A stretch of 64,000 nt of DNA from Stegostoma tigrinum (taxonomy: Eukaryota): contig NC_081391.1 in the NCBI RefSeq assembly GCF_030684315.1, positions 13,741,342 to 13,805,341 of the forward strand, in the 5' to 3' direction. Positions 1,791 to 64,000 of this stretch are shown here, piece after piece. The notes below the pieces were generated by a model. It was not told the DNA's origin. It searched no databases and saw nothing but the letters and a program-made list of their open reading frames with translations. The translations under genes were made by a program, and so were the position numbers. How positions within the stretch are numbered: the stretch's first letter is position 1; every line of letters starts with the position of its first letter.

Positions 1791-4700
1791 ATGGCCTCCC
1801 AGATCAGTCAGAACTATCACCAGGATTGTGAAGCTGCTGTCAACAAGCAGATTAATGTGGAGCTCACTGCCTCCTATCTCTATCAGTCTTTGGTGAGTGC
1901 TGTCTCTCGGGGTTAAACATATAAATCTGTTCTGTTGAAGTAAATTCTTTGCCTGGCCTCTAGTGAAGCTGACAATCTAGTAGATTGAGGTTTTGTGGCT
2001 CCTACCTAAATATCAGTTCAGGATAGAGGTGGTGTTACTATCACGATGGTGTAGGATACTGATGTATGTTAACTCAGGTCCCAGTTGGCCTTCAGTGGTA
2101 TCTGGAGGGTAAAAGCCTCTTGCTTTTGTTTTCTTTCTGACACAAGTTTCCTGACTTCATTTGCCTGATCTCTGTGGTGGTCCTAAACAAACATGCTGAT
2201 TTTTTTTAACACTGACAATAACAATAACTTCCCTGTTGCAGTGGCCCTTGTTAGTCTGAACAAACCTGAAGCTAGTCTGTGACTAGCATCTGTTTTAAGT
2301 AGATCTCCTTCATTGAGGCTGACTTGGCTTTACTTGTATTTATTCAAGATGTGGGTGTGGCCTATCCCGTCCCTACTGAGAGTTGATCTGCTGTGTGTGA
2401 GAAATGTTGGATCCCCACTCTGCCCCTTCTCCACCCCACCCCATGCTGGGGCTGCTGGAATGTGCTGAGGCTATTAGCCCAGTGACAGTGAAGGAATGGA
2501 GGTTGTTCCCATATCATTTAGCTTGACCTAAAACAAAATGTCCCCTCTATCCCAGTGGTGATGTGCTTGTGCCCTTCCAAGGAGTAGACTGTGCTTGGAA
2601 GGTATGTGTTGAAGTAACCTTGGTGAGTGCTGCAGGGGACCTGGTAGGTAATGGACCCTGAAAGGAGGTGGTGAATGCAGTCCCCATGAAGTGGGCTGCT
2701 CTGTCCTGGATGGTGTCTGCTTCTTGCATGTTGCAGGTCCCCTTCTCCAGACACATGGAGAATATTCATCTCTCTCTGGGCTTGTGCCTGTTGTGAGGAA
2801 GTTGTCTTGTAATGAGGACTAAGTCCCTATAAGCCTCACTTGGGAGGTGGGACAGCTTTATTGGTGATCCAGTGGTTGGGGTTTAATCACTGTGTCCCAA
2901 CTCTGTTGGCACATGCTTCCCAAGGATAAAATCCCGACTATCTTCTGCCATGACGTGTAACTACCCACTTAAACCAGAGATTTTTGCTTGCCTGACTGTG
3001 GTTTTTGGATTTGTGGATTAAAGTAACTTTTCAGGAGTCCTTCCCCAGAATGTAACTCTTAGCTGATGCTTCCAATAGTGACGATTAGCTCTTAAACCCT
3101 TACATCGAATTGTGAACATGACAGTTTAGATATGAGTCACATGGGCTGAAAGCCGACAGGATTTTTTGCCTGTTTGGGTTAAGTCAGGGCAAATGCTTTT
3201 CCAGGTTACTGTTTTCACTAGTGACGTTATCTACAGGCCACTGATATTTGACATTTGATCATTTGTTTCAGTCATGTGACTTGGTGCAAGTTTCTGACAG
3301 CCTGAGTTTGCACTATTTTTAGGCAGAGCAATAACCCACTGCTGCAACGATCCAAAGGCTGTTACTGGGCAGGCTTTCCTTGGCATTATCTTAGTGCTAA
3401 ACATCATACTGAAGATAGCGTACCCGTGTAGAGTTAATGTGTACACTTATGTCCAAATCTCATTGATCCTGGGTTTGTAGAAAACATTCTCCCTACTATT
3501 CATTGACTAGAACAAGGTTCAACATCTTTTTTGAAAGTTTACCTGAAAGGCAAAACACAGTGCCTTGTGGCTCCTCCATCCTGTGTACATCCTGTACGCC
3601 AGCTCCTGGCACTTCCTGAAAGCCTGTTCAACCAGTAACTTCATCCAATTCTGTTGGAGATTAATGAATAGAAGCATGAATTCAGCTCTGTCTCTCCACA
3701 AAGGCTGTGCCAGGCACTCCTGAGCTAATCACCAGTAGATTCAAACCAAAATAAAACAGTATTTTTGGTTCCAGGAGGAAGCTGGACTGTTGTGATTTTG
3801 CCCAGTTGCTGGTGAATTGAACAACACTGGGTTCACAATCTGTTCAGTGTCTGACACATGAGCATGCCTTCTGTCAGTTTGGTTTGAGTGCTCAAGTAGT
3901 CTTGTAGTTGAGAACTGCAATGGGGAGTGAGCCAGTGATGTCGAATGTAACTTGAACTTGTTCTTCCAGATGTCCTACTTTGCCCAAGACGATGTTGCCC
4001 TCCCCCATTTCTCCCAGTTCTTCAAAGATCAGTTCCAGGAGAAGCGGGAACATGCAGAAAAGCTGCTGAAATTCCAGAATCAGCGTGGCGGCCGAGTCCT
4101 CCTCCAGGATGTGAAGGTTGGGGTTGGGTGGTGGGGGAGTGCAGGGTGGAATGGCTGCTCTTGCGGTGTCATCTCCAGTGACAAGATTTTCAGATCCTGA
4201 GCGAGTGTGGAAAGTTCTTTTGCTTGGCTTCCCTGTTTGCTCTCCTCCATCTCCAGTGTTTCAGCATTTATACAAGCCTGACTTCCATCAAACAACCACC
4301 TCAGCCTCACCTGCTCAAAGGACAAGGAAAACCCCAGCCTGTCCAATCTCTCTCCTCACAATGGATTTTCTGTCTCGGGGAAACAACCTGGGGACCCTCA
4401 CCAGCACCCCCTGCAGTGCTATCCTGTCCTTCTGACTAGCGAGGCCAAAGATAGAATGCAGCAGAGGCCGGAAGAACAATTTTCATAAAATGTGTTCAAA
4501 GGACTTGTCCCTGTGCTGTTCCTCACAACCCTGCCCCAAACTAACACATGTTACTTGGCCTATGTCCCCTTTCACACACAGTTTGCCTTGTGTGAGCATT
4601 GAGGGATCGATGATCCTGTGTTTATTGTAAGCACATTACTGCCCCCGACAATGAATTCAAGTAATGATGGTTCTGACCATGCCGCTCGGGCATGTATGAG

Positions 4701-5999
4701 GCCACAAGCACAAGTGAGACTTGAACATCAGCCTTGTCAACCGGAGCTTGGGACACTACCGCTACTTCCCCCACAGCCCTTGGGATTCACTCATGAATAT
4801 CCTTTTTAAGACTCCAGCAGATGGACACTGGTGCAAATGACTAATCTGGTACATATTTATTCCCTGTGGTACAAGGATATGTTCCTGAACTTCCGGCTTC
4901 AGGTCAAGGATAAATGGGGCAAGGTGAAAGGAGTCACCAAGTAGCTAATGTTTTCTTTATCTGGACTTCAGGGATGGCACAGTGGCTCAGTGGTTGGCAC
5001 TGTTGACTCAGTGCCAGGGGTACCAGTTTGGTTCTGGCCCGTGACGAGAGTTTAAACGTTATCCCAAAGCATAGCATCCCCACACAGTAGAAAAGAAGAT
5101 TGGCAACTTGAAATGCAGGTTACACGAACAGGGTGGGAATGGGACCAGATGGGATGCTCTTCAGCAGTTATGGTCTCAGTGGGGTGAATGGCCTGCTCCC
5201 ATGCTGCAGGGATTCTGTTTCTGAAGCTTACCTGTCCTTCTCTCCATCCATAGAAGCCAGAGAGGGATGACTGGGGTAACAGCCTGCAGGCAATTCAGGT
5301 TGCCCTGAATCTGGAAAAGAATGTGAACCAGAGTTTGCTGGATCTACACCAACTCGCCACAGCCCAGACTGACCCTCATGTCAGCTTCACCTCCTCATTC
5401 ACATCACTGCTAGACCCTCAAGGTAACGTTTCATTGGTTGGTCTGTGTGGATTGGAAATTCACTGAAGTAACACTTTCCATCCATTACTTTCCTGAACTA
5501 TTGTAACATTGATCACTTGGGATCATACTGATTACAATGAGGTATAAGGGGAATTTGATCTATAATCTAGTGGAACTGCTGAAATGACGTTGGCCACTGA
5601 GTTCTTCATTAGTATCATTGCAGTGGAATGATCATTGTCCATCACAATCCAACTCAGCTCCATTTCACAAACAGCAAGATGGAGCAGCTGACATGTTGTC
5701 CTCACTGGCACAAATTCTCCAGGTGTTAGCTCGCTTTTCAGGGCTGTCCAGAGCTAGTCATGGCTAAGTCTGTCTTGCAGTGGGAATTCTGAAATTGTCG
5801 TGGATAGTATAAATGTACCAAGTGTCATATTCCTCTGTTGCAGCTGTGTGACTTCCTGGAGACTCACTATTTGGATGAGGAGGTGGAGATCATCAAGCAA
5901 CTTGGGGACTACATCACCAACCTGAAGCGCCTGGGAGCCCCTGAGAATGGGATGGGAGAGTACCTGTTTGACAGGCTCTCCCTGGAGGACAGCAGTTAG
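1791..5999 (+). CDS. Ferritin subunit, copy A (4 exons, 176 aa; H/M backbone with L-type K62/E141/L173); apparently intact
   Basis: Exons 1791-1892, 3970-4116, 5254-5379, 5844-5999, all GT-AG and phase 0 at the canonical vertebrate ferritin positions. Protein [45 protein letters not shown]...[13 protein letters not shown]...[18 protein letters not shown]...DRLSLEDSS*. Confidence 0.92.
4971..5210 (+). mobile_element. Degenerate tRNA-derived SINE (HE1-like) in intron 2
   Basis: GGGATGGCACAGTGGCTCAGTGGTTGGCAC...AGTGCCAGGG A-box-like head. Homologous remnants lie in intron 2 of the other copies (e.g. ~14906, ~21335, ~28376, ~45625, ~55618, ~63536), so it inserted before the array expanded. The 3' boundary is approximate. 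Confidence 0.6.
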
Positions 6000-7760: not shown

Positions 7761-7799
7761 CAGCATCTTGTTCAGACACACCCTGCCTTCTTACGCCAT

Positions 7800-17583: not shown

Positions 17584-20500
17584 ATGAGTTCCCAGATCAG
17601 TCAGAACTATCACCGGGATTGTGAAGCTGCTGTCAAAAGGCAGATTAATGTGGAGCTCACTGCCTCCGATCTCAATCACTCTTTGGTGAGTGCTGTCCCT
17701 GTGGGGTTAAAACTTGATCTATGTAGTTGAAGTAAATGTTTTCTCTTGAATTTAATTAACTGGACCCTCTCTCTTTGTAGATTGAGTTTTGTAGTCCTTT
17801 CCTAAATATTAATTCAGGATAAGGGCAATGTTACTGTACCAATGGGGTTTGATAATGATGTACTCTGAAGCTGGGTCCCAGTTGGCCTTCAGAGATATGT
17901 GGAGGATGAAGTGTCCCTGGAGAAATTTGCCAGTTTGGTGTTTGAATTGGCAGTAGATGTCATTCCCTCTAAGATTACCAAATGTTGGTAGGGTTACTTC
18001 AGAAAGGTATTATATTGATCATACTGTGGGACTAGAATCACCCACTGGCTAGTTACCCTCTTTCTGACAGGTTTAAGTATCTGATTTTATATTTGCTTGC
18101 TTTTGTGGTGATACTTAAATATCAATTCTGATATTGACAATGATAATTCCCTATTGCAGTCTGCTGTGGCTAATCTGAGCAAACCTACTTGAGGTTAGGC
18201 TGAGTGTGACTGGTATCTGACTTTTTAAAGTAGATCTCAGCTGAGGCCTGCTTGGCATTTTGCACTCCCATCATGAGATGGGTGTGGCCTATCCCTGAAC
18301 CTGTAGAAAGTTGATCTGCTTTAGTGTGTGGCGTGTTGAAGCTTCTGCAAACCATGTTTGCCTCCTGCCCCCTCACCCACACCCTGCATCCCCTCTAGCT
18401 GCTGGAGTCTGAGATTCATGGTCCAGTCTCTATGCCATCCTGATAGGGAACAAACTGTCCCCTTTAGCCAGGTGGCAGTGAACCTGTAACTTTCCAATGG
18501 GTAGAATGTTTCAGACAGTAGGAACAGCAGATGCTGGAGAATCTGAGATAACAAGGTGTAGAGCTGAATGAACACAGCAGGCCAAGCAGCATCAGAGGAG
18601 CAGGAAGGCTGATGTCTTGGGGCATGACCCTTCTGAAGGTGGGCCTAGGCCCAAAACAGCAGCCTTCCTGCTCCTCTGCTTGGCCTGATGTTTTCATCCA
18701 GCTCTACATCATCGTATCTCAAGGGGTAGAATGTGTTTGGAAGGTGTGTGTTGAAGTAACCTTGGTGAGTGCTGCAGGGGACCTGGTAGATAATGGACCC
18801 TGAAAGGAGGTGGTGAATGCAGTCCCCATGAAGTGGGCTGCTCTGTCCTGGATGGTGTCTGCATCTTGAATGTTGCAGCTCCACTTCCACAGACACATGG
18901 AGAATCTTCTTCACTCTCAGCTTTTGTCTGTTAGAAAGAAGATGTCTCATGACAGATGGATGAAGCCCGTATAAACTCCATTTGGGAGGTGGGTACAGCT
19001 TTCATTGGTGAGCCAGTTGACGGGTTTTAATTACTGACCAGGGTCCCATTTCCCTTGGGGAACACGTGTGCCAATTATAAAATCCTTCCTATTCTCTCCT
19101 GCCACAGCTTGTCCCTACCCCGTTAAACAGACAAGAAATTTTGTTTGACTGCTTCTACATGAAGACAATAACTTCCCACCAGGCTTCCTCGACAACAAAA
19201 CTCTTAGCTCCTGTTTCAAATATCAGAAGAATAGCCCTTCATAAACCTCAAGGCATTGGATTGTGAATATCTCGGTTCGGAAGTGAGTCACATATGGGTG
19301 GACAAACAACAGAACGGTGCCAGCTGGGATAAGCCAAACTTTGTTGTCCAGCTTTGTGTTAACTAGTGACGTTAGATCAGCCATTATCTGTAGATACAGG
19401 TCACATTGGTTCTTTCTCTCCAATATTTGACCTTCCCTCAGTTTGATTCAATTTGTTTTGTTCATGTGACCCTTGTTCTCCCCCTTCTGGATGTGAGTGC
19501 ACTAATTTTAGTGTGCTATAAACTATAACTGCAACAATCCAGAGGCAGTTACTGGGTAGGTTTTCCTTTGCACTATCTTGTTGTCGCTTTCTCTCATTCG
19601 CCTCTATTATATCTTGTAGTCATAAAATATACCGTACATTCAATCTCCCTGGTTTTGAGGCCACAGAAACCTTGCTTCCTCCTGGTTATATTGTTACAGC
19701 AGTGTCTAACATGTATTTCCATGCCAGCCCCAAAGGAGCAATAGTGTTACAGCTCCCCTACTCAAGTATAGCCTGCACTCCAGCTCCTGGTGCTTGTTTC
19801 AGCTGTTTGTTTGGCACTAATATTGTCCAATTCGAATGAAGGTTAGTGAGTGCAAACATGGCTGGATACAAGAAGAGCTATAATGCTGTGCCAGGCAGCC
19901 TGAGCAATTTACTGTTTGTTTTAAGCCAAACTTTTGCCAGTTTCCAACAGGAAATTGGGATTGTTCTGTTTGATCCCAGTTGAAGGATCTGCTGGACAGC
20001 TGGACATCATTGGGTTCTCAAACATGTTCACATACCAGGCAGTTAGTTTGCTGCAGAAGGCTGAACTAGAATTTGGAGTCAGTGCTGTGTTTAATGGGCT
20101 TTAACATGTTATCTCCCTTCCAGATGTCCTACTTTGACCGGGATGATGTGGCCCTCCCCCACTTCTCCAGGTTCTTCAAAGATCAGTCCCGGGAGAAGCA
20201 GGAACATGCAGAGAAGCTGCTGAAATTCCAGAATCAGCGTGGAGGCCGAGTCCTCCTCCAGGATGTGAAGGTTGGAGTTGGGTGGGAGGGTTGCAGCTGT
20301 GGAGGAGAGAATGGCAGCTCTTGTGGTGCTGCGTCCTGTTGGGATGTGAAAATCCTCTTTTGGCATGGCTTCCCTGTTTGATTTCTTTTGAAGGCAGTTT
20401 CTAAACAAGCCCTATTGTCCACCATGTCTATGCTGCCCACAAACATCAAACTAGATTAACACAATTTCCTGCACTTAGTCCACAGCCGACTATCTTCTGG

Positions 20501-22316
20501 CATGAAGAAGTTGTTGAGATTAGCCTTCAATGTTGCTGGAGTAACTGCCTCCACTGACCCCACAGGTAATGCATCCCATACCTCTCCCACCCTCGACTGG
20601 GTGGGTGGGTCCTCCAATCTCCTCAAACCTGTGCCATCTGGTCTTCATGTCTGCCATGGGGACTGTGTATTGTCCATCCTCCCTGATCTTCCACACTTCC
20701 ATCAGATCACCATCCCAGGCTATCCAACCTCCCTCTCATCATTGTATTTTTGTTGTCTTTTTTTGCTTCCATCTTGGGCCAACATCCTGATGACCCTCAC
20801 CTGTACCCCCTGCAGTGCCACCTTGTCCCTCTGATGGTGGTTCTGGTCACCACACTACATTCCATCTTTGGTCTGGCCAATGCTGCCATGTTTGTGGCAA
20901 GACTCATCCTTTCTACTGAGCCCCAAATCATGGAGACCAGCATCATGTCAGCCCCTTGCCCACTCTGTCTACCTTTGCTGAACCTTGAGGGATGGACTTG
21001 GGCATTTGTTGCTTGTCCCTTTTACTGTAAGCACATTGCTCCCTTCAATGAATTAAATAGTAGTGATGTCTGATCATCCTGCTCAGACATGGATGAAGCC
21101 ACCAGCACAGGTGAGACATAGATGCCTGGCCTGCAAGGTGCAGATTGGTACTCTACCTCAAGAGCCCTTGAGACTAAGGTGTCAATGTCCTCATCTAAAT
21201 GCCAAATGGGCACTGGTGCAAACAGTTGAACTTTGTGTGAAATAAATCCCTAGCCCACAATGACTTCATGCTTCAGATCAAGGATAAATGGAGCAAAGTG
21301 AAGTCACTTCACAAGTAATGAATGTGGGTTTTAGGGGTGGCACAGTTGCTCAGTGCCAGGGACACAGGTTTAGCTCTGGCCTCTGATGACTGGTGATTAC
21401 ATGTTCAGGTTTCTTCCTACAGTCCAAATATGGGCAGGCTGGGTGAAGTAGCCATGGGGGAATTGCAGTGCAAATGGCTCAGGTAAATCTGAGATCTTCT
21501 TCAGAAGGTTGATTGCAGACTCAATGGGCTGAATGGCCTGCTCCCATGCTGCGGCGAGTCTCTGATTCTGAAGCTTAACTGTTCCTGTTTCCATCCTCAG
21601 AAGCCTGAGAGGGATGAGTTGGGTAACAGTCTGCAGGCAATGCAGGTTGCCCTGGATGTGGAGAAGAATGTGAACCAGAGTTTGCTGGATCTACACCAAC
21701 TCGCCACAGCCCAGACTGACCCTCATGCAAGCTTCACCTCTTCATTCTCATCACTGCCAGGCCTCCTCAACTTCATTGGTTGGTCTTTGTGGAGTGGAAA
21801 TTCACAGACGTAACTTTGTCCAGATGCTACATTGTACCTTTGTCATCATAATTATGATGACAATGTTAAACTGCTCAACACCGAACTGAAATAGGAATTT
21901 GGATTACAGTCTGGTGGGAATGCTGATGTGACTTTTTTGACTGCTGAATTGGGGATTGTTGCACTATACAATACAACTTGGAGCTCTTTAAGAAGGTGAG
22001 ATGAAGCAGCTGAAATGTGCTCACTGGCACAAATTCTCCACCTGTTAGCTAGATTTTCAGGGCTGTCTAGAGCTCGTTATGGCTCAGTCTTTTTCAGTAG
22101 GAATTGTGAAGTTGTCTTGGATAGTATAAATGTACCAAGTGTCATATTCCTCTGTTGCAGCTGTGTGACTTCCTGGAGACTCACTATTTGGATGAGGAGG
22201 TGGAGATCATCAAGCAACTCGGGGACTACATCACCAACCTGAAGCGCCTGGGAGCCCCTGAGAATGGGATGGGAGAGTACCTGTTTGACAGGCTCTCCCT
22301 GGAGGACAGCAGTTAG
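17584..22316 (+). pseudogene. Ferritin copy C; promoterless, probable pseudogene with open frame
   Basis: Exons 17584-17685, 20124-20270, 21601-21726, 22161-22316. The promoter module is deleted (junction ~17545). Exon 1 reads ASDLNHSL (Y32D, Y34N), the conserved W of DEWG is L, and the exon-3 donor is GC (CAT|GCAAGC). Confidence 0.78.
18511..18719. mobile_element. Older palindromic Penelope-derived short element in intron 1 of copy C
   Basis: GGAACAGCAGATGCTGGAGAATCTGAGATAACAAGGTGTAGAGCTGAATGAACACAGCAGGCCAAGC plus an inverted arm. Flanks CAATGGGTAGAATGT / CAAGGGGTAGAATGT resemble a ~15-bp TSD. Confidence 0.72.
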
Positions 22317-32645: not shown

Positions 32646-32834
32646 AGGTCAAAGGTCATTTCAGCAATTTCATCATCAACCAGTTGTCAATTCTGATTGG
32701 GTTTTTGACCCAATTCCCATCCTGCGCTGATTGGATGTGGCAGCTGATCAATTGATTAACAAGAGTGTTTGGCCATCACTGATGATCTCATTTCCTGCTT
32801 CAGAAAATGAGTGTTGGCTCCTGGAGTATAAATA
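32646..32834 (+). promoter_or_regulatory. Proximal promoter of ferritin copy E
   Basis: Perfect DR1 32646-32658, ATTGG ~32730, TTTCCTG, TATAAATA 32827-32834. Confidence 0.72.
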
Positions 32835-32920
32835 GAGTCCCACAGGAGGCATGTTTACTGTTGCTCTTAACTTTGTCATTTTTCTGGGGAGGAAAATAAA
32901 GCAAGTGTTTCCTTTATAAG

Positions 32921-42216: not shown

Positions 42217-42404
42217 AGGTCAAAGCTCATTCAGCAATTCCATCATCGACCAGTTGTCAACTGTGTTTCGTTTCTGGATCCAGTTCCCATCCTGCACTGA
42301 TTGGACGTGGCAGCTGATCAACTGATCATCAAGAGTGATTGGCCATCACTGATGATGTCATTTCCTGCTTCATAAAAAGAGGGTCTGCCCCTGGGGTATA
42401 AATA
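42217..42404 (+). promoter_or_regulatory. Proximal promoter of ferritin copy A'
   Basis: AGGTCAAAGCTCA 42217-42229, two ATTGG, TGATGTCATTTCCTG, TATAAATA 42397-42404. Confidence 0.72.
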
Positions 42405-42489
42405 GAGTCCCACGGGAATGATGTTGATTGTTCTTCCTAATTTTGTTATTTTGGTGGTGAGGAAAATAAAAGAAATTTATTGTCACAAG

Positions 42490-45400
42490 ATGGCCTCCCA
42501 GATCAGTCAGAACTATCACCAGGATTGTGAAGCTGCTGTCAACAAGCAGATTAATGTGGAGCTCACTGCCTCCTATCTCTATCAGTCTTTGGTGAGTGCT
42601 GTCTCTCGGGGTTAAACATATAAATCTGTTCTGTTGAAGTAAATTCTTTGCCTGGCCTCTAGTGAAGCTGACAATCTAGTAGATTGAGGTTTTGTGGCTC
42701 CTACCTAAATATCAGTTCAGGATAGAGGTGGTGTTACTATCACGATGGTGTAGGATACTGATGTATGTTAACTCAGGTCCCAGTTGGCCTTCAGTGGTAT
42801 CTGGAGGGTAAAAGCCTCTTGCTTTTGTTTTCTTTCTGACACAAGTTTCCTGACTTCATTTGCCTGATCTCTGTGGTGGTCCTAAACAAACATGCTGATT
42901 TTTTTTAACACTGACAATAACAATAGCTTCCCTGTTGCAGTGGCCCTTGTTAGTCTGAAAAAACCTGAGGCTAGTCTGTGACTGGTATCTATTTTATGTA
43001 GATCTCCTTCATTGAGGCTGACTTGGCTTTACTTGTATTTATTGAAGATGTGGGTGTGGCCTATCCCGTCCCTACTGAGAGTTGATCTGCCGTGTGTGAG
43101 AAATGTTGGATCCCCTCTCTGCCCCCTCTCCTCCCCACCCCACCCCACACTGGGGCTGCGGGAATGTGCTGAGGCTATTAGCCCAGTGACATTGAAGAAA
43201 TGGAGGTTGTTCCCATATCACTTAGCTTGACCTAAAACAAAATGTCCCCTCTATCCCGGTGGTGATGTGACTGTGCCCTTCCAAGGAGTAGAATGTGCTT
43301 GGAAGGTATGTGTTGAAGTAACCTTGGTGAGTGCTGCAGGGGACCTGGTAGGTAATGGACCCTGAAAGGAGGTGGTGAATGCAGTCCCCATGAAGTGGGC
43401 TGCCCTGTCCTGGATGGTGTCTGCTTCTTGCATGTTGTAGTTCCCCTTCTACAGACACATGGGGAATATTCATCTCTCTCTGGGCTTGTGCCTATTGGAA
43501 GGAAGTTGTCTTGTAATGAGGACTAAGTCCCTATAAGCCTCACTTGGGAGGTGGGACTGCTTTATTGGTGAGCCAGTTGGTGGGGTTTTATCACTGTGTC
43601 CCAACTCTATTGGCACATGCTTCCCAAGGATAAAATCCCGACTATCTTCTGCCACAACTTGTAACTACCCACTGAAACCACAGATATTTGCTTGCCTGAC
43701 TGTGGTTTTTGGATTTGAGGATTAAAGTAACTTTTCAGGAGTCCTTCCCCAGAATGTAATTCTTAGCTGATGCTTCCAATAGCGAGCATTAGCTCTTAAA
43801 CCCTTACATCGAATTGTGAACATGACAGTTTAGATATGAGTCACATGGGCTGAAAACCTACAGGATTTTTTGCCTGTTTGGGCAAAGTCAGGGCAAGTGT
43901 TTTTCCAGGTTACTGTTTTCACTAGTGACGTTATGTACAGGCCACTAATATTTGACATTTGATCATTTGTTTTGCAATTTGTTTCAGTCATGTGACTTAG
44001 TGCAAGTTTTTGACAGCCTGAGTTTGCACTATTTAGGCAGAGCAATAACCCACTGCTGCAACGATCCAAAGGCTGTTACTGGGCAGGCTTTCCTCGGCAT
44101 TATCTTAGTGCCAAACTCCATACTGGAGACAGCACACCTTTGTAGAGTTCATGTGTACACTTACATCACAATCTCATTGATCCTGGATTTGCAGAAAACA
44201 TGCTCCCTACCAGTCGTTGACTACAGCAGGGTTTCAACATCTTTTTTTCCAGTTTTCCCCAAAGGCAAAACATAGTACCTTGCGTCTTGTAGTTGAGGAC
44301 TGGAATGGGGAGTGAGCCAGTGATGTCTGATGTAATTTTAACTTGATCTTCCAGATGTCCTACTTTGACCAGGACGATGTTGCCCTCGCCCATTTCTCCC
44401 GGTTCTTCAAAGATCAGTCCCAGGAGAAGCAGGAACATGCAGAAAAGCTGCTGAAATTCCAGAATCAGCGTGGAGGCCGAGTCCTCCTCCAGGATGTGAA
44501 GGTTGGGGTTGGGTGGTGGGGGAGTGCAGGGGGGAATGGCTGCTCTTGCGGTGTCATCTCCAGTGACAAGATTTTCAGATCCTGAGCGAGTGTGAGAAGT
44601 TCTTTTACTTGGCTTCCCTGTTTGCTCTCCTCCATCTCCAGTGTTTCAGCATTTATGCAAGCCCTCTGGTCCACCAGGCCTATGCTGACCCAGCAAAGAC
44701 CGAACTGTACTCACCCTGTTCTTGGTCCAGGCCCTACTATACCCTAGTGTTTAGCACTCGCCCAGCTAGTCCTTTAAACAGTGCTGCAGTAGCCATTTCC
44801 AGCACTTCGTTCCTCCGTTCCCCAACACACCCACCAAATTTCCTCCAATCCCCTCTATCCTGCTTCCTCAAACCTGTGCCCTCTGGTCTTCGTGTCTGCC
44901 ATGGGGAAGACATTTTCCCCATCTACTGTCCAGACTTCCTTGTCTTCCATCAAACAACCACCTCAGCCTCACCTGCTCAAAGGAAAACCCCCAGCCCATC
45001 CAATCTCTCTCCTCAATGGATTTTCTGTCTTGGGGAAACAACCTGGGGACCCTCACCAGCACCCCCTGCAGTAGCATCCTGTCCTTCTGACCAGTGAGGC
45101 CAACGATAGAATGCAGCAGAGACAGGAAGAACAATTTTCATAAAATGTGTTCAAAGGACTTGTCCCTGTGCTGTTCCTCACAACCCTGCCCCAAACTAAC
45201 ACATGTTACTTGGCCTATGTTCCCTTTCACACACAGTTTGCCTTGTGTGAGCATTGAGGGATCGATGATCCTGTGTTTATTGTAAGCACATTACTGCCCC
45301 CGACAATGAATTCAAGTAATGATGGTTCTGACCATGCTGCTCGGGCATGTATGAGGCCACAAGCACAAGTGAGACTTGAACCTCAGCCTTGTCAACTGGA

Positions 45401-46654
45401 GCTTGGGACATGACCGCTACTTCCCCCACAGCCCGTGGGATTCACTCCTGAATATCCTTTTTAAGACTCCAGCTGATGGACACTGGTGCAAATGACTAAT
45501 CTGGTACATATTTATTCCCTGTGGTACAAGGATACGTTCCTGAGCTTCCGGCTTCAGGTCAAGGATAAATGGGGCAAGGTGAAAGGAGTCACCAAGTAGC
45601 TAATGCTTTCTTTATCTGGACTTCAGGGATGGCACAGTGGCTCAGTGGTTGGCACTGTTGACACAGTGCCAGGGGCACCAGTTTGGTTCTGGCCTGTGAC
45701 GAGAATATAAACGTTATCCCAAAGCATGGCTTCCCCACACAGTAGAAAAGAGGATTGGCAACTTGAAATGCAGGTTACACGAACAGGGTGGGAATGGGAC
45801 CAGATGGGATGCTCTTCAGCAGTTATGGTCTCAATGGGGTGAATGGCCAGCTCCCATGCTGCAGGGATTCTGTTTCTGAAGCTTACCTGTCCTTCTCTCC
45901 ATCCCCAGAAGCCAGAGAGGGACGAGTGGGGTAACAGCCTGCAGGCAATGCAGGTTGCCCTGGATCTGGAGAAGAATGTGAACCAGAGTTTGCTGGATCT
46001 ACACCAACTCGCCACAGCCCAGACTGACCCTCATGTAAGCTTCACCTCCTCATTCACATCACTGCTAGACTCTCAGGGTCATGTTTCATTGGTTGGTCTG
46101 TGTGGATTGGAAATTCACTGATGTAACACTTTCCATCCATTACTTTCCTGAACTATTGTAACATTGATCACTTGGGATCATACTGATTACAATGAGTTAA
46201 AAGGGGAATTTGATCTCTAATCTAGTGGAAGTGCTGAAATGACGTTGGCCATTGAGTTCTTCATTCGTATCATTGCAGTGGAATGATCATTGTCCATCAC
46301 AATCCAACTCAGCTCCATTTCACAAACAGCAAGATGGAGCAGCTGACATGTTGTCCTCACTGGCACAAATTCTCCAGGTGTTAGCTCGCTTTTCAGGGCT
46401 GTCCAGAGCTAGTCATGGCTAAGTCTGTCTTGCAGTGGGAATTCTGAAATTGTCTTGGATAGTATAAATGTACCAAGTGTCATATTCCTCTGTTGCAGCT
46501 GTGTGACTTCCTGGAGACTCACTATTTGGATGAGGAGGTGGAGATCATCAAGCAACTCGGGGACTACATCACCAACCTGAAGCGCCTGGGAGCCCCTGAG
46601 AATGGGATGGGAGAGTACCTGTTTGACAGGCTCTCCCTGGAGGACAGCAGTTAG
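42490..46654 (+). CDS. Ferritin subunit, copy A' (4 exons, 176 aa); apparently intact
   Basis: Exons 42490-42591, 44355-44501, 45909-46034, 46499-46654, all GT-AG, no stops. Confidence 0.92.
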
Positions 46655-51578: not shown

Positions 51579-51768
51579 AGGTCAAAGGTCATTCAGCAAT
51601 TCCGTCATCGACCAGTTGTCAATTCTGATCGTTTTCTGGATCCAATTCCCATCCTGCACTGATTGGACGTGGCAGCTGATCAATTGATGAATGAGAGTGA
51701 TTGGCCATCACTGATGATGTCATTTCCTGCTCAAGAAAACGAGGGGGCTGCTGCTCGAGTATAAAAAA
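51579..51768 (+). promoter_or_regulatory. Proximal promoter of ferritin copy B'
   Basis: Perfect DR1 51579-51591, two ATTGG, TGATGTCATTTCCTG, TATAAAAA ~51760. Confidence 0.68.
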
Positions 51769-51872
51769 TGTCCCAAGAGTGTGATGTATGTGGTGTTGTT
51801 GATCATCTTTCCAAGTTTGTTCTTTGATTGTAGAGGAAAAGGAAGGGTTTCCCCCCCCCCACCCCACCCCCA

Positions 51873-52106
51873 NNNNNNNNNNNNNNNNNNNNNNNNNNNN
51901 NNNNNNNNNNNNNNNNNNNNNNNNNNNNNNNNNNNNNNNNNNNNNNNNNNNNNNNNNNNNNNNNNNNNNNNNNNNNNNNNNNNNNNNNNNNNNNNNNNNN
52001 NNNNNNNNNNNNNNNNNNNNNNNNNNNNNNNNNNNNNNNNNNNNNNNNNNNNNNNNNNNNNNNNNNNNNNNNNNNNNNNNNNNNNNNNNNNNNNNNNNNN
52101 NNNNNN
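51873..52106. other. Assembly gap flanked by (CCCCA)n-like C-rich sequence
   Basis: Run of N at 51873-52106, with C-rich flanks at 51851-51872 and 52107-52172. Confidence 0.98.
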
Positions 52107-52175
52107 CCCCCCACCCCACCACCCCCCCCCCCACCCCACCCCACCCCCCACCCCACCCCCCACCCCACACACAAA

Positions 52176-55100
52176 CTGGCCTCCCAGATCAGTCAGAACT
52201 ATCACCAGGATTGTGAAGCTGCTGTCAACAAGCAGATTAATGTGGAGCTCACTGCCTCCTATCTCTATCAGTCTTTGGTGAGTGCTGTCTTGATGGAGTT
52301 GAAATTAAATCTATTCTGCAAATATGAGCTGATCCTCTTGTTTCTAATTAACTTCATAGTCTTGTAGATTTGAGGTGTTCAAGTTCTTAGCTTAAAAATC
52401 ATTTTGGGATAAATGTGATGCCCTTTGGTAACAATGGATTTTGATATTGATGTAGAATAACTAATTCACCAGCTGGGATTGAGTGATAGATGGAGGGCAA
52501 ATTGTTCTGTCAATTATTTTACAATTTACTGCCAGGCCTTTGCCTGGTGGTAACTGTCTATTTTCTCCCCAGAATTGACCAACCTTTACTAAAAATAGAT
52601 GTAATGGTTTTGGGAGTTGTAGGCACCCCTTGGCTAGTCATCCTGAAACATTTTAATATACCTTGATCACACTTTATTTGTCCTCTGATCCTAAATAAAC
52701 ATCATGCCAGTTTCCATTCTGTGATGGAGAATGATGGTGGTGACTGGCTTCTGAGCGTATTCACTTGTAATTTGCATTGAGGAGGCCTCAGATGTGGACT
52801 AGTTGGCTTTCTGCCTTCTCCATTCACGAATGGACTGTTAGTGGTCAGGAAGTCACTTGTTGTCCATTCCTCCAACAGATCAATGCTCTCCTGTGAGTGC
52901 ATGCACAGGGTGTCTAGAATAACCTGAGGTTTTTATTTCAATAAATATGAAGAAATGGGAAATGGCCCCTTTCTCCACGTAGTACTGTGCCCATGCCCTT
53001 CCAAAATGGAAGGATGTAATGGTTTGGAAATGTTGAAGCAGATTTTGAAGGCTGCTGGGTACCTAGTAGGTAGTGGACACCAGGAGTGCATTCACTCACT
53101 CCCTTCAATGAGGTGGGCTGCTCTATCCTGCACAGTGTCTACTTTGTGCATGTTGCAGCTCCACTTCTTGGGACAAGGGGACAATATTTATCCCTTGTGG
53201 GGCTTATCACTGAGAAGCCATCTCTTCCCACTCTTTCAGGATGAAATCCCTGTACCCTTCCCTTTAGCAGGTGGGAACAGCTATCACCAATAAGCCTTTT
53301 GGGTCTTAACTGTCAGTGGTGTCCCTCATCAATTGGGCAGCATGTGCCCAAACAACCCACTATCCTCCATCTGTAAGATGCAGCTACCCAAGTTAAGCCA
53401 GAGAAATTTACACAACTGTTTTTTGACAAAAGAAGCTTCTTAGCCTGATCAGTAGGAACTAGATAACCTGCTTTAACAAGGTGTCAAGCTGGATGAACAC
53501 AGCAGGCCAAGCAGCATCAGGGAAGCTGATGTTTTGGGCCTGGACCCTTCAGAAATGGGGAGGGGAATGGGTCCCTGACATAGGAAGGGGTGGGGAGGTG
53601 GATGGATGAGGGATAAAGAAACAGATGGTGAGGAGACAGAGGTCTGAGGTGAGGATAGGGCCAAAAAGGCCAAATGAGTTGGGTAGGCTTGTCCAGGGAG
53701 GTGGGGATGGGTTTTGAGGTAGGGGTGGTGTGGGGAAGTAGGTGGGAGGAAGGATGGACAAGCTAGGGAGGTGGGGACCAGCTGGGCTGTGATTGGGGGC
53801 AGGGAGATCTTTCAGCTTAAGTCCTCACTGATACCATTGGGCTGCAGGGTTCCCAAGCAGAATACAAGGTGCTGTTCCTGCAACCTTTGGGTGGCATTGG
53901 AGGCCCAGAATGGACATCAACTGTCCCCTCCTGCTCCTCTGAAGGGGAAGTAGTTTGTGACTGGGAGGTGCAGCTGCCAGTCATGAGCCAAGCATGGGTG
54001 CTCCACAAAGTGGAGTCAAGCCTCTGCTCGGCTTTCCTGATGTAGAGAAGGCCACATTAGGAACAGTGGATACAGTATACATCACTGCAGATGTGTAGGT
54101 GAACATCTGCTTGATGTGGAAGGTCTTGGGCCCTGGGATGGGGGGGGAGGTGTAGCACTATCTGTGTGGCAGTTAAAGCCCTGGCTGGAGGGGCTAGTGG
54201 AATGGACAAGGAATCAGTGGTCTCTCCAGAAGGCAGCTAAGGTTGGGGAGGTAAAAAATGTCTTGGCCAGATCGCAGATGGTCGAAGTGCCAGAGGATGA
54301 TGCATTGGATCCAGGCATTGAGGCGGTACTGAAGGATGAGAGGATTCTGTTTTGGTTGTGTGCGGGATAAGTTGCAAGACGCTGTTGTGTTTTTCTTCAA
54401 CTGAAGGTAAGTTACACTTCATTGGAAAATGAGGACATCTGGGATGCCCAGGAGTAGAATGCCTCCCCTCAGGGCTGGAGGTGAAGGAATTGGATTAGGA
54501 GATGGCACTTTCCTTCCACAGGAAGGTGGGTGAGGTGTATTCTAGGTAGCTGTAGGAGTCAGTAGGTTAGAAATATATCCAAGGATATATCGAAGATTGA
54601 TAGATCAACTTAAGGTTGAGGTAGAAGGTTCTAATGAATTAGAGGAACTGTTCAAGCTCTTTGTGGGATGTAATAGAGGAAGATGTGGAGTTTATGGCCC
54701 ATCTCGCTGTAGAAGGATTGTTCCACATATCCTACCAAGAAGCAGGCACAGCTTGTACCTATGGCCACCCCCTTCCTCTGTAGGAGTTGGGAGGAATTGA
54801 AGGAGAAGTTGGGGGTGAGGATGAGTTTGCTAGGTGGACAAGGTTGTTGGTGAACAGGGACCAGTCAGGCCTGCAGGACGAGAGAAGCAGAGGGAATTAG
54901 GCCATCTCCATGGGGAATGGATGAGGTTGGAGGCTGTGGGTGGGAGGTAACCTCCAGTGAGGTTGTGGATGGACTAGGAGATGGTTTGGTGGTCAGCGGT
55001 GGAGTCATGATCAAGGTGGGTAGGTGGTAGGAGGCATCGGCTGCTCTTCCACACAACTACATGTGGCACTCCAGCTCCTGGCATTTCCTTTAAACCCTGT

Positions 55101-56690
55101 TCAGTCACGAACTTCATCCAATTCTGATGGTGCTTAGAGTGGATATGTTCTTCTCTCTACAGACAAGAACAGGCCTGGTCAATTCACAGGTTTTTGTAAA
55201 GGAATTTTAAAAAATAGGGTATTTGCCTGGTTACCAGGAGGAGGCGAGGGTTGTTTTTGATGATTCTTGAACTGGAGCCACTGGCTAACTGGACAATGGT
55301 TCTCCTCCAACTTGATGTATCTAATATTTATTGACTTCTCAATTTGAAGGTGAAACCAGTCATGTCTGGCACCAATTGTATGATGTTTAATGGATGTAAC
55401 TTGTTTTCTCCCAGGTGTCGTACTTTGACCAGGATGATGTTGCTCTCCCCCATGTCTCCCGGTTCTTCAAAGATCAGTCCCAGGTGAAGCAGGAACGTGC
55501 AGAGAAGCTGCTGAAATTCCAGAATCAGCGTGGAGGCCAAGTCTTCCTCCAGGATGTGAAGTTTGGAGTTGGGTTTTTGGGGTGGGGGGAGTTGGGTGGT
55601 AGAGTGGCTGCTCCTCAGGGATGGCACAGTGACTCAGTGTTTACCATGCCTGCCTCAGTGCCAGGGATCCAAGTTGGTTCTTGGTTCTAGGCTCCAGTGA
55701 ATGAGTGATGTTTACTTGCTCTTGCCATGTCCACATTGGCTTCACAGTTCAATGATGTGTGTGTTAGAAGGATTGCCATTTAAAATGCAGGGTGACAAGA
55801 ATAAGGTGGGATTCTTCACGGAGAAGGGCCTTGTCGCAACAAACGTAGTGGCTGTACCTGCTGATCGGGGATGAATGAAATGATGCAGTGACCTTGGTTA
55901 TTGTCACCATGAGTCAAATAGCCTGTTCCCATGCTGCAGAGATTGTGAAGCTTACCTGTCCTCTCTCCATCCGCAGAAGCCAGAGAGGGATGAGTGGGGT
56001 AACAGCCTGCAGGCAATGCAGGTTGCCCTGGATTTGGAGAAGAATGTGAACCAGAGTTTGCTGGATCTACACCAACTCGCCACAGCCCAGACTGACCCTC
56101 ATGTAAGCTTCACCTCTTCATTCTCATCACTGCCATGCCTCTTCAACTTCATTGGTTGGTCTTTGTGGAGTGGAAATTCGCAGACGTAACTTTGTCCAGA
56201 TGCTACATTGTACCTTTGTCATCATAATTATGATGACAATGTTAAACTGCTCAACACCGAACTGAAATAGGAATTTGGATTACAGTCTAGTGGGAATGCT
56301 GATGTGACTTTTTTGACTGCTGAATTGGGGATTGTTGCACTATACAAGACAACTTGGAGCTCTTTGAGAAGGTGAGATGGAGCAGCTGAAATGTCCTCAC
56401 TGGCACAAATTCTCCACCTGTTAGCTAGATTTTCAGGGCTGTCTAGAGCTAGTTATGGCTCAGTCTTTTTCAGGAGGAATTGTGAAGTTGTCTTGGATAG
56501 TATAAATGTACCAAGTGTCATATTCCTCTGTTGCAGCTGTGACTTCCTGGAGACTCACTATTTGGATGAGGAGGTGGAGATCATCAAGCAACTTGGGGAC
56601 TACATCACCAACCTGAAGCGCCTGGGAGCCCCTGAGAATGGGATGGGAGAGTACCTGTTTGACAGGCTCTCCCTGGAGGACAGCAGTTAG
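52176..56690 (+). pseudogene. Ferritin copy B'/C' chimera; pseudogene
   Basis: Exons 52176-52277 (start reads CTG, next to the gap), 55415-55561 (E61V, H65R; donor AAG|TTTGGA), 55977-56102, 56537-56690 (2-bp deletion gives CTG TGA, an immediate stop). Introns 1-2 match B; intron 3 and the 3' flank match C. Confidence 0.87.
53473..55040 (-). mobile_element. Degenerate Penelope-like element in intron 1 of B' (paralogue of 12745-14320)
   Basis: Collinear with the B-intron element, including the [19 protein letters not shown] remnant and the terminal repeat. Confidence 0.8.
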
Positions 56691-59606: not shown

Positions 59607-59794
59607 AGGTCAAAGGTCAGTCAGCAATTCCATCATCGACCAGTTGTCAATTCTGATCGGTTTCTGGATCCAATTCCCATCCTGCACTGATTGGACGTGG
59701 CAACTGATCAATTGAGTAACAAGAGTAATTGGCCATCACTGATGATGCCATTTCCTGCTTCACAAAGTGAGGGTCTGCTCCTGGAGCATAAATA
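59607..59794 (+). promoter_or_regulatory. Proximal promoter of ferritin copy D' (TATA mutated to CATAAATA)
   Basis: Perfect DR1 59607-59619, ATTGG boxes, CATAAATA 59787-59794. Confidence 0.65.
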
Positions 59795-59889
59795 ACGTCC
59801 TAAGAGAATGCTGTTTTAGGTGTAGTTGGTTTTCTTTTTCTAGTTATAATTTGATTGTGAAGGAAAAGGAAAGTTGTTTCTATCACAAG

Positions 59890-62800
59890 ATGGCCTCCCA
59901 GATCAGTCAGAACTATCACCAGGATTGTGAAGCTGCTGTCAACAAGCAGATTAATGTGGAGCTCACTGCCTCCTATCTCTATCAGTCTTTGGTGAGTGTC
60001 CCTGTAGTGTTGGATTTAAATCTGTTATGAAGTGAACTTTTTCTTAAAAAACTAGATTAACACTCTTGTAGACTTTTCTTTGTATCTCTTGCCTATTTCT
60101 TGAGTCAGGGTAAATGTGATGACAATGGGATATGATACTGATATGCAGCAACTGAGGCCCCAGTTGTCTCAATGATATAGGGAGGGTGAAGCATCTTGTG
60201 ATTTATCTTAAAATTCCTTTTAGGGCTGTGATTGCCTATAACTGACCGTGGTTCTCCATAATTTTCTAAACGACTGTCAAGTTTTGATGATCAAGATAAC
60301 ATTTGGCTAATTACCTTTTTTAAATCTGCCTTGATGTATCTATTTTAATTTTCAGCATGTAAATAAACAAACAAACATACTGATTTTGGTATTTACAATG
60401 AAGTGTTGTAGTAATTTGACCAATCAGATTTGGTTAAGCTGAACTCTAGTCCTCCAGGTAAAACAGGCTGCTACCTACTTAAGTAGGTCTCCTATATTTT
60501 GGCTTCTTGTACTCTATCATGAGGTGGGTTTGATCCATCACTTCACAACCTATAGATAGTTGACTTGTGGGTGCCCTGCACCCACCCCCGCCCCACCAGG
60601 GCTGCTGGAACATGCTGAGGCTATTGACTTCAGGGGTGAAGAAATAAATGTTCCTTTACCATTTAACCAGATAAAAAAAACAAACTGGCCCCTCCCACCA
60701 TGTGGTGGTGCCCCTGTGCCCTTCCAAGGGGTAGAATATGTTCAGAAGGTGTTGCAGTCCCCTTGGTGAGTGCTGCAGGGGACCTGGTAGATAATGGACC
60801 CTGAAAGGAGGTGGTGAATGCAGTCCCCATGAAGTGGGCTGCTCTGTCCTGGATGGTGTCTGCTTCTTGCATGTGGCAGCTCCACTTCTTCAGACACATG
60901 GAGAATATTCATCACTCTCTGGGCTTGTGCTTGTTGGAGCGAAGCGGCCTCTAAATGACATGAGGATCAAGCCCCTATAACCTACCTTTTTGGGAGGTGG
61001 AACAGCTTTAACTAGTGAACCAATTGTTGGGTTTTAGTCACTGACCACTGTCCCAACTCAATAGGGAATCTTGTGTGCTGATAATAAAATCCCCACTATT
61101 CTACACCTTCTATGACTTAACTACCCCATTAAACCACTTTTTTTTAACTTTTTTTGTTTTTATTTGAGGATTAAACTAACTTTTCACCAGGATTCCACCC
61201 AAGAACGAAATCTTCTTTTGAAGAAGTCAATAGACTACTCCTAATCAACAATAACTTGTTGGATTGTGAATCTCAGTTGAAAAGTGAGTGAAATGAGTGG
61301 GGAAACAATAGTTTAGATCTTGGAATAAGCTAAATTGAGCTCTCCAGCTTTGCAATCTATAGATCATGTGACTTGTTCATAGTCCTGCAGATACTATTAG
61401 GTCTCCTGAACATTCGATCTTGTTTCAGTTGTGAATTTTTTTAATGCTTTGCTTTGCAAGCTTCTGGCAACCTGAGTGCACTGCATAAACAAATGTGATA
61501 AACTATTGCTGCAACAAGCCAAAGGCTATCACTGGGCAGGCTCTCCTTTAGCACCAAGATTCTCCAAATTGCCCTCATTCTCCTGCATACTGCAAACAGC
61601 ATCTCTTGTAGAGCTGCTTTATGTAAAGAAAAAATACAGTACATCTGATCCAACTGGTTGCAGAAGACCTGTACCTACTCGCTACATTCATGTCCAGCAT
61701 CTGCATGCTACTCTAGCACCAGGGGAGACATGTAATGACTTGAAGTTGCCTGACCCTGTGCACATCCTGCATTCCAGCTCCTGGCACTTGGTTAAACCCT
61801 ATTCAGTTACCACTTCCATCCAATTCTGGAGGCTAGATGGCAGAAATGTGCATTCAGCTTTTCTATCTAGGCTGTGCCAGACCCACACCCCCAAACAATT
61901 CAGCAGGGTTTATAAACCCAAACACTGAAATTGTATCTTACATGGAAGAAGCTGGGGTTGTTTGGTTTCCTCCAATTAAAGGAGCTGCTGGCTAACTTTG
62001 CAACACCATTAGTGAACATTGTAAGGTGTCAACAATTTTCAGCTGATTGAATCATTAGTTTGCTTTAGACTAAACCAGTCCTCCAGTTCTGAGCATGAGA
62101 AATGGGGTCAATGATGTGTTTAATGGGCTTTAACTTTTGTTCTCCCTTCCAGATGTCCTACTTTGACCGGGATGATGTTGCCCTCGCCCATGTCTCCCGG
62201 TTCTTCAAAGATCAGTCCCAAGAGAAGCAGGAACATGCAGAGAAGCTGCTGAAATTCCAGAATCAGCGTGGAGGCAGAGTCCTCCTCCAGGATGTGAAGG
62301 TTGGAGTTTTTGGTGGGGGGTTGTGTGGCAGTGTGCAGGAATGGCAGCTCATGGTGTTTTCTGTCATTAGTGACAGGATTTTCACGTGGTAAAGGGTGTG
62401 TAGGTTAGAGTTGGAGAACTTAGGCAGTGGGGAGGAGATGTGAGAAATGGCTGCTTGTGGTGAGGTTTCATGTCCTGAAAGAAAGTGAAAACTGTTCTTG
62501 TTTGGCTCCCCTCCTTTTGACTAAAAGGGAAGATCCTCGAAACAAGCCTCTTGGCTCCCCTCCACCTGCTGCTTCTCCACACCGCGCCCCCCCCCCCCCC
62601 ACCCCACCCCACCCCACCCCATGCTGACCCAACAAACACCAAACCACATTCATCCCATTTACTGCACTTGGTCTCCAGCCCCCATGGCATTGGTAGTTGT
62701 CTAGAAGCTGCTTCAATATTGCAGCAGTAGATGCCTCCCCCACTGCCCCACCCACCCATATTATTTTTCCACTACCCTCTCGGCAAAGGATTCCTCTAAC

Positions 62801-63948
62801 CTGCTTACTCCTCACATCAGTGCCCTCTGGTCTTAATGTCTCTTTCTCCCCACCCCCTCATAGCAGACACTCCCCATCTACTATCAAGACTCCACACTAA
62901 TCAAATGCCATCACAGAAACATCTCAACTGACTTCACTCTGGGGATTGGAGTGAGAAATCTAATCTCTCCTTTTAATGGATTTTTCAGTCTTGGGGCAAC
63001 ATCCTAGTGACCCCTTCCAGTGCCATTGTGGCTCTGGTCACCACACTGTATTCCACGTTTGCATGGCCAATGCTGCAAAGTTTGTGACAAGACTGGAGTC
63101 CCTGGACTGCACCCCAGGAAATGGGGACAGGCATTGTGGAAGCCAACTTCCCCATCCTGTCTACACTTATGGATCCTTGAAATATCTTTAGTCTTGTGCT
63201 CTTGGTTCCTTTATTGTCAACATATTGCTGTCCCTTCAATGAATTAAATAGTAGTGCTGATTTTCATCATTCAGGTCAGTCCTATATGAAGCAATAGGCC
63301 CAGGTTGAAGTCCCACTTGTGCTTATGCTCCAAGCCTAGGGACAGTACCACTGCATAACAAGCCCCGGGCTCAAGTTGTGAATATCCTCCTTGGGATGCC
63401 ATCAGATGGGCACTGACAATTCTGTGCAAGCATAACTCTTATCCCCACTATGACCTGGTCATGAATTGACTCTCCTTTCGGAAGAAGCAAATAGGGCTAG
63501 GTGAAAGGAATTCTTAAATAACTAATCTGGGCTTCAGGGATGGCAGTGGTTAGCACAACTGCATCAGTGCTTGGGGCACAAGCTTAATTCTGGCCTCTGG
63601 TGACTGACTGGAATTTACATGTTCACCACATCTCTACATAGGTTTCCTCCCACAGTCCAATGATGTGCAGGTTAGGATAGGCCATGAAAAATGCAGGATT
63701 ACATGGCTAGGTCTAGGACCAGGTTGGATGCTCTTCAGACGGTCATGAGTGGGCAGAATGGCCTGTTGCATGCTGCAGGGATTTTTGTTTCTGAGGCTTA
63801 ACTGTCCTTCTGTCCATCCTTAGAAGCCAGAGAGGGATGAGTGGGTAACAGTCTGCAGACAATGCAGGTTGCCCTGGATCTGGAGAAGAATGTGAACCAG
63901 AGTTTGCTGGATCTACACCAACTCTCCACAGCCCAGACTGACCCTCAT
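59890..63948 (+). pseudogene. Ferritin copy D' (exons 1-3; exon 4 beyond window); same exon-3 frameshift as D
   Basis: Exons 59890-59991, 62153-62299, 63824-63948 (125 nt; GAGTGGGTAAC lacks one G). Confidence 0.85.
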
Positions 63949-64000
63949 GTAAGCTTCACCACTTCATTCTCATCACTGCGAGACCCTCAGGGTAACACTT

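Follow-up and report, generated by a model that had tools for sequence, protein, structure and literature searches.

A tandem array of K62 ferritin genes in Stegostoma tigrinum belongs to a shark-wide subfamily of likely ferroxidase-deficient subunits

Which type of ferritin subunit is encoded by a tandem gene array of Stegostoma tigrinum, and is it still able to oxidise iron? The array occupies a window of 64,000 nucleotides (nt) on contig NC_081391.1 (NCBI RefSeq assembly GCF_030684315.1, positions 13,741,342 to 13,805,341 of the forward strand; coordinates below are those of the window). Six-frame motif search and exon mapping identify eight four-exon ferritin units, all on the + strand, spanning 1791..63948 with a spacing of 6.2-9.7 kb. 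Eight exon-1, eight exon-2, eight exon-3 and seven exon-4 matches follow each other in order, exon 4 of copy 8 falling past the window end. The exons measure 102/147/126/156 nt and are 93-100% identical to those of copy 6 (E <= 1e-37, far beyond chance). A preliminary description, made from the letters alone, had proposed at least eight ferritin genes of a probable shark, with a metal site mixing heavy (H) and light (L) chain residues. What is new here, within an already known ovary-expressed cluster, is a shark-wide ferritin subfamily with lysine at position 62 (K62), lacking the iron-responsive element (IRE), which is not H, middle (M) or L by the criteria tested. The favoured reading, which we consider fairly probable, is that of an ancient K62 subfamily of the M/L branch whose product, catalytically dead and not regulated by iron, serves as a partner subunit in oocyte ferritin.

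The residues of the metal site are the first evidence. In human H numbering, checked against human H in a PDB alignment, codon 62 is AAG (Lys) in 8/8 copies, and every exon 4 carries GAG (Glu) at codon 141 and Leu at residue 173 (7/7), as the preliminary description had stated. Its claim that the other ligands are retained holds for E27 (8/8) and E107 (6/6 in-frame exon 3s), and less completely for Y34 (7/8, N in copy 3) and H65 (7/8, R65 in copy 7). The exon-2 motif QS(Q/R)EK(Q/R)EHAE reads as quoted in six of the eight copies, copy 1 having F59 and copy 7 V61 and R65, and the M-like string KPERDEWGN is exact only in copies 5, 6 and 7 (3/8). In the nucleation patch, position 57 is D or H and position 60 is Q or R, while E61 (7/8 copies) and E64 are present. 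Position 9 is Ser in 8/8 copies. The described change from Arg is thus present, but it had to be rejected as an L trait: it is common to the E62 array of sharks, the position varies in both shark families and L keeps Arg. EAAVN and NLKRLG...GEYLF, also read as L-like, both occur in frog M, together with most of the other motifs so labelled. The remaining L-like traits are K62 and L173, plus S52, H57, Q119 and L37.

These residues can be set against the known subunit types. H subunits have intact E27, E62, H65, E107 and Q141, from which the copies depart by K62 and E141. M subunits combine an intact ferroxidase centre with nucleation carboxylates, from which they depart by K62 and D/H57. The L residues K62, E141 and L173 are all present, E141 being specific to carpet sharks and L173 not diagnostic. 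On the other hand, E27 and H65, whose loss is typical of L, are kept, and of the L acidic patch E57/E60/E61/E64 only E61 and E64 are found. The pattern of FTHL17, E62K with the other ligands kept, is the one observed. The general features of a vertebrate ferritin are a ferritin domain and four coding exons with three introns, and both are present. The copy 5 protein equals Stegostoma XP_059496544.1 (P0200) at 175/176 residues. The AlphaFold model of P0200 (pLDDT, the predicted local distance difference test, 89) has five helices, a four-helix bundle and a short E helix, with template modelling (TM) scores of 0.93-0.95 to H and M ferritins; P0200 matches Pfam PF00210, and the Atlas search likewise returns ferritin.

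The nearest named proteins, among the matches listed, come from S. tigrinum and other carpet sharks, in agreement with the proposed shark source and amplified family. RefSeq names these shark proteins heavy- or middle-subunit-like. Three kinds of Stegostoma ferritin are listed on one 26.87-Mb sequence, namely the K62 proteins, another large family with E62 and a single conserved M-type gene; the H gene is listed on a 64.4-Mb sequence. Among the matches listed, a scope that holds for all counts in this paragraph, 108 named shark and ray array proteins were sorted by S52 and Q119, which lie outside the metal site. The first class has K62 and L173 in 52/52 proteins from nine shark genera including Heptranchias, and keeps E27 (51/52), Y34 (52/52), H65 (47/52) and E107 (52/52). 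The second class has E62 in 52/56, Q141 in 54/56 and L173 in 37/56 proteins; one E62-array protein of Heptranchias carries K62. Since K62 is fixed across the clade with the ligands kept, the state is old and conserved, and not the result of decay. E141 is found in 29/29 carpet-shark members of the K62 class vs 0/23 of the others, and is therefore a late carpet-shark change, convergent with L, while the frequency of L173 in the E62 array indicates that it is not tied to K62. The K62/E141/L173 triad is then, as far as these proteins tell, not inherited as a set. The residues of the 'hybrid H/L metal site' are real; their value as evidence for L was overstated. The K62 clade, 64-69% identical to H and M ferritins and with the 3-fold channel residues D131/E134 kept, dates back at least to the divergence of sevengill and galeomorph sharks.

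The second question is that of activity. E62 is described as coordinating iron at both sites, and the E62K and H65G changes together as abolishing activity (PMC6929972; PMC4029007 is cited likewise). In FTHL17, where the other ligands are kept, E62K alone is stated to be sufficient to abolish ferroxidase activity (PMC7760355). Because of these two precedents the shark K62 subunit is likely ferroxidase-deficient, by analogy, as the preliminary description had supposed. A salt bridge between K62 and E107 is known for the L chain. Full-text searches, with subscription journals outside their scope, found no paper on K62 or ferroxidase-deficient shark ferritin. A remodelled and not dead site, in which E27, H65, E61 and E107 with the new E141 would oxidise iron at a useful rate, is improbable. 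The near-complete retention of E27, Y34, H65 and E107 in the K62 class is more than a dead site needs, and reptile and human L have lost E27 and H65; however, E62 bridges both sites, its change to Lys is reported as sufficient for activity loss (PMC7760355, PMC6929972), and FTHL17 is described as inactive despite the same ligands.

The third question is where the clade comes from. In the trees K denotes the shark K62 clade, A the shark E62 array, L the reptile L chains and M the M ferritins; tetrapod L is represented by reptile L, human L being seen in PDB alignments only. The full set has 87 rows, from which the 53- and 56-row sets were chosen by hand. Excluded were proteins that are partial, fused or unnamed, the apparent mislabels P0162 and P0177, P0172 for its chimeric look, and two very divergent proteins, P0353 and P0492. 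For the later approximately unbiased (AU) tests the constrained searches were short (30 iterations), and the C10 AU test was made on JTT-optimised trees. The window copies belong to a shark K62 clade of 20 rows (support 100/99), within the M/L side (99/98). The H clade is separate at 99/98 and 98/94, and shark H is another gene; compared with H, as the preliminary description had proposed, the window proteins fall outside the H clade and on the M/L branch. Similarity rank is misleading on subunit type, as crocodile L matches human H above human L.

Within the M/L side, an L lineage predating the shark/bony-fish split and convergence had both been offered as histories. These are the right candidates, and no AU test rejects either. 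Orthology of the K62 clade with tetrapod L is close to an even call, with a slight lean over convergence on the sequence evidence. Most trees join K to reptile L, with a bootstrap of 11-100% by model and taxa. In the 53-row set under JTT+G4, the best-fit model, K+L is the maximum-likelihood tree by 8.5 log-likelihood units (lnL), K+A having p-AU 0.19. Sites 62 and 173 supply 7.8 of these 8.5 lnL, and the lead falls to 1.8 lnL when five metal-site columns are removed. With three marsupial proteins added, K+L reaches 93/100, and 97/100 without the metal-site columns. A C20 mixture tree of 56 rows gives K+L 584/1000 vs K+A 395/1000. Exons 2+3 favour K+L, and exons 1+4 favour K+A or L+M.

The rival history, possible although somewhat short of an even chance, is that the K62 genes branched off the E62 array within sharks alone and gained all their L-like residues by convergence, tetrapod L having arisen separately from the bony-vertebrate M gene. 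The preference of exons 1+4 agrees with it, as does the free 87-row mixture-model tree, which gives K+A (88/89, 877/1000 bootstrap trees, K+L 108/1000) and L+tetrapod M (873/1000); yet the K+L-constrained tree is 1.7 lnL better than this free tree (p-AU 0.585), and the JTT+G4, marsupial and C20 results above favour K+L. Without the five metal-site columns, LG+C10 puts K+A 2.7 lnL ahead; none of three topologies is rejected by the AU tests, and the best tree changes under LG+C10. Homoplasy is documented. Marsupial proteins annotated as FTHL17 carry both K62 and L173 but are placed inside tetrapod M (93/89, 94/98, 95/94), so that both residues can arise twice; K62 also occurs in the Heptranchias E62-array protein, and a sponge ferritin with E62K is among the matches. 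No K62 protein from chimaera, ray, coelacanth, lungfish or ray-finned fish is among the matches listed, and orthology would need several losses; an absence that rests on the matches listed is, however, a weak argument. Gene conversion enters the comparison as well. Residues 165/172 follow genus in both shark families (L/R in bamboo and epaulette sharks, M/R in zebra and whale sharks, M/K in lamniform, horn and sevengill sharks), which suggests that exon 4 has been subject to gene conversion between the K62 and E62 families. Such conversion would hide the K+L signal and bias the trees to K+A.

If orthology holds, the K62 clade would be the true FTL orthologue and the dead subunit would have been present in the jawed-vertebrate ancestor. 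K62 would be the first step, E27 and H65 being lost later in tetrapods; M would be a sister paralogue and not the fish form of L, and ray-finned fishes would have lost L. Ancestral L may then have been an iron-unregulated oocyte ferritin, amplified by sharks to dozens of copies. This joint reading is held tentatively, at just under an even chance.

Several database entries deserve mention on their own. Many public gene models in shark arrays are fused or read through introns (P0001-P0006, P0008, P0009, P0194, P0334). P0008 looks like a frameshifted copy patched by annotation; it is a faulty model with intron-2 read-through, and identities from P0008 queries are understated. Shark and salamander ferritins are filed under Salmonella or E. 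coli, and a lizard-type L under giant panda and nematode (P0263, P0266, P0282, P0328, P0329, P0162, P0177), which are likely contaminations or mislabels. P0172 and P0492 are, respectively, an Alligator sinensis isoform with E27 together with K62/Q65/E141, perhaps a chimeric M/L model, and a very divergent 'lower subunit-like' ferritin of Callorhinchus without E62 and E107. The marsupial 'FTHL17' proteins (P0343, P0482-P0491) have 176 residues, group with amphibian and reptile M, and may be a misnamed mammalian M orthologue.

Comparison with the known ferritins places the K62 subunit between several of them. With tetrapod FTL it shares K62, E141, L173, S52 and L37 (reptile and human L) and H57 and Q119 (reptile L). 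It differs from tetrapod L, where E27 (F/L in reptiles, Y in human) and H65 (Q, G) are lost, E60 is present (human also E57) and R9 is kept; moreover, E141 is a derived state within the shark clade. Reptile L, with K62, Q65, E141, L173 and a hydrophobic residue 27, adjoins the M gene by accession order; mammalian FTL is a single copy with an IRE. With fish and amphibian M the K62 subunit shares the 176-residue length, the tree branch, 68-69% identity to frog M and most of the 'L-like' motifs; M nevertheless keeps E62, Q141 and H173 and is catalytic, and sharks have a separate single-copy M gene. The hadal snailfish fthl27 is likewise a tandem amplification of a fish ferritin (14 copies), but it is described as recent, broadly expressed and linked to tolerance of reactive oxygen species (PMC10746142).

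Eutherian FTHL17 is intronless. The mammalian FTHL17 proteins resemble the K62 subunit in E62K with the other ligands kept; in the description available FTHL17 lacks ferroxidase activity, is expressed in the germ line and is multi-copy in mouse, the eutherian form being, unlike the shark genes, X-linked and H-like (PMC7760355). The K62 protein could thus act as FTHL17 does, as a germ-line ferritin that keeps iron available rather than stored, or as a regulatory and partly nuclear protein. The same site pattern, the germ-cell expression and multi-copy families of FTHL17, the weak nucleation patch and the failure to find an IRE in the window copies are in its favour. We regard it as unlikely: FTHL17 is described as unstable, whereas the shark clade is slow-evolving, at the identities to H and M given above, keeps D131/E134 and lies beside catalytic copies. 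Nor do the marsupial FTHL17-named proteins group with the shark clade; three marsupial FTHL17-cluster proteins group with tetrapod M, in trees built without eutherian FTHL17.

The favoured K62 partner subunit also depends on how the genes are controlled. A 25-nt promoter motif precedes seven of the eight copies, against none expected from shuffles. Its elements are presumably E-box-like hexamers and a pair of inverted CCAAT boxes, which are known from oocyte promoters but are also generic. A TATA-like box lies 93-103 bases 5' of the ATG in six copies and implies a leader of roughly 65-75 bases, the transcription start being placed from this box alone. For the whole window, the IRE search returned no Rfam match at gathering threshold, none among 14 weak matches and no hairpin-pattern match; the 14 weak matches, below thresholds, were set aside as chance or repeat hairpins. 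Two long inverted-repeat hairpins, at 30216-30315 and 18593-18678, give sub-threshold Rfam microRNA matches and are probably repeat-derived. Salmon H and M genes are described with the same plan of four coding exons and three introns, and with an IRE in all the mRNAs (PMC4117605). For the Greenland shark, Sahm et al. (preprint, bioRxiv 10.1101/2024.09.09.611499) report 155 'FTL' and 179 'FTH1' copies (the authors' labels), in tandem and conserved with the white shark, the largest cluster being ovary-specific in expression. The expansion is therefore already reported; residues, activity, promoter and phylogeny are absent from the ferritin section of that preprint.

In the favoured mechanism K62, which replaces the bridging ligand E62, would leave no di-iron site and little or no ferroxidase activity, as the two precedents suggest. 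The subunit would work like the L chain and co-assemble with the catalytic E62 subunits of the same chromosome into 24-mer cages. Its transcription would be set by development and not by iron, most likely in oocytes, and the many copies would give the dose needed to stock or buffer iron for the embryo. The genes, promoter motifs, duplicated blocks and repeats of the window are the following.

1791..5999, + strand: copy 1, intact; exons 1791-1892, 3970-4116, 5254-5379, 5844-5999; K62, F59, E141, L173
11219..15994 including promoter (11219), + strand: copy 2, frame open, intron-2 donor GC; exons 11422-11523, 14701-14847, 15265-15390, 15839-15994
17584..22316, + strand: copy 3, frame open, intron-3 donor GC, without promoter motif; exons 17584-17685, 20124-20270, 21601-21726, 22161-22316; D32, N34, L93
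24322..29387 including promoter, + strand: copy 4, pseudogene; exons 24524-24625, 26985-27131, 28645-28769 (1-nt deletion, frameshift), 29232-29387
32727..38073 including promoter, + strand: copy 5, intact; exons 32921-33022, 35802-35948, 37328-37453, 37918-38073
42297..46654 including promoter, + strand: copy 6, intact, block duplicate of copy 1; exons 42490-42591, 44355-44501, 45909-46034, 46499-46654
51659..56690 including promoter, + strand: copy 7, pseudogene; exons 52176-52277 (CTG start), 55415-55561 (V61, R65, TT donor), 55977-56102, 56537-56690 (2-nt deletion at exon-4 start)
59687..63948 including promoter, + strand: copy 8; exons 59890-59991, 62153-62299, 63824-63948; 1-nt deletion in exon 3 identical to that of copy 4
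1598, 11219, 24322, 32727, 42297, 51659 and 59687, + strand: promoter motif before copies 1, 2, 4, 5, 6, 7 and 8
1598..1706, + strand: copy 1 promoter, conserved block up to the TATA-like box at about 1698
1-11403 vs 40713-51844; 11416-16172 vs 52170-56868; 21532-23632 vs 55917-58008; 24873-28821 vs 60057-64000: duplicated blocks
44-1333; 8956-10356 (- strand); 33513-34292; 40626-42024; 49389-50796 (- strand): reverse-transcriptase-like fragments of long interspersed nuclear elements (LINE), between or inside units

An open frame with GT-AG introns is found only in copies 1, 5 and 6; copies 2 and 3 have a GC donor, and copies 4, 7 and 8 are broken. The count of at least eight ferritin genes is thus right for tandem units and not for working genes. 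Copy 3 is probably decaying. Copy 7 is a hybrid, copy-2-like in its 5' half and copy-3-like in its 3' half. A 234-base assembly gap (51873-52106), bordered by G- and C-rich low-complexity sequence, lies in its 5' leader, and its CTG start may be an edge artefact of the adjoining gap. No other gene is found in the window, where the long frames between units are the reverse-transcriptase-like LINE fragments. We take these to be CR1-like; they are possible substrates for unequal crossing-over.

The window compared with itself shows duplicated blocks about 40.7 kb apart, in which copies 1, 2/3 and 4 correspond to 6, 7 and 8 at 87-96% identity, and the exon-3 frameshift of copies 4 and 8 was copied together with the block. 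Among copies 2, 4, 5 and 6 the exons differ by 1.5-5.8%, the introns by 31-42%, the leader by 37% and the first 130 bases past the stop by 6.7%. Similarity drops sharply at the ATG, and synonymous differences are well below intron divergence. The ratio of nonsynonymous to synonymous differences (pN/pS) is 0.24-0.45 in 10/10 pairs of the five in-frame copies. These patterns are those of birth-and-death evolution with homogenisation confined to exons, the units multiplying and dying by unequal crossing-over. Three other explanations were rejected. An assembly duplication does not fit introns that differ by 16-31% between non-sister copies, a sequencing error does not fit an exon-3 deletion common to the block-duplicated copies 4 and 8, and a retrogene origin does not fit the presence of introns.

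The array might instead be mostly neutral debris of repeat-driven duplication, with few or no copies expressed. The broken copies, the frameshift spread by block duplication and the LINE fragments between units are what this would produce. It is nevertheless very improbable, given the small exon differences vs those of introns, the conserved promoter, the clade kept in nine genera among the matches listed, and the ferritin cluster described as expressed in Greenland shark ovary (bioRxiv 10.1101/2024.09.09.611499).

Some points weigh against the favoured partner-subunit reading itself. Three of the eight copies are broken and two more are doubtful, so that three to five are damaged overall, and exon homogenisation can produce a low pN/pS without selection on each copy. 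Human L has E57 and E60 in the PDB alignments where the window copies have D/H57 and Q/R60, which weakens a function like that of L, E57/E60/E61/E64 having a nucleation role in human L. E141 adds a carboxylate, as in L-type proteins, beside intact E27 and H65. As the leader start is placed from the TATA-like box, an upstream non-coding exon with an IRE is conceivable. The ovary result concerns another species and a whole cluster, with no Somniosus protein among the matches listed, and may reflect E62 copies. Finally, K+L orthology is significant in no AU test.

Teleost M has been described as the orthologue of mammalian L (PMC4117605), which would place the origin of the non-catalytic L chain in tetrapods. 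Identity of the K62 clade with L would overturn that view and make the shark proteins a natural intermediate in which the effect of a single substitution stands alone. If the likeness is convergent, E62K would have arisen repeatedly (in L, in the FTHL17-named marsupial proteins, in sharks and in a sponge), often in germ-line ferritins, which would suggest that eggs and germ cells have required an inactive subunit more than once. Under both histories, a substantial fraction of the shark RefSeq copies named 'heavy' or 'middle subunit-like' are probably inactive enzymes, which bears on claims that relate copy number to antioxidant capacity.

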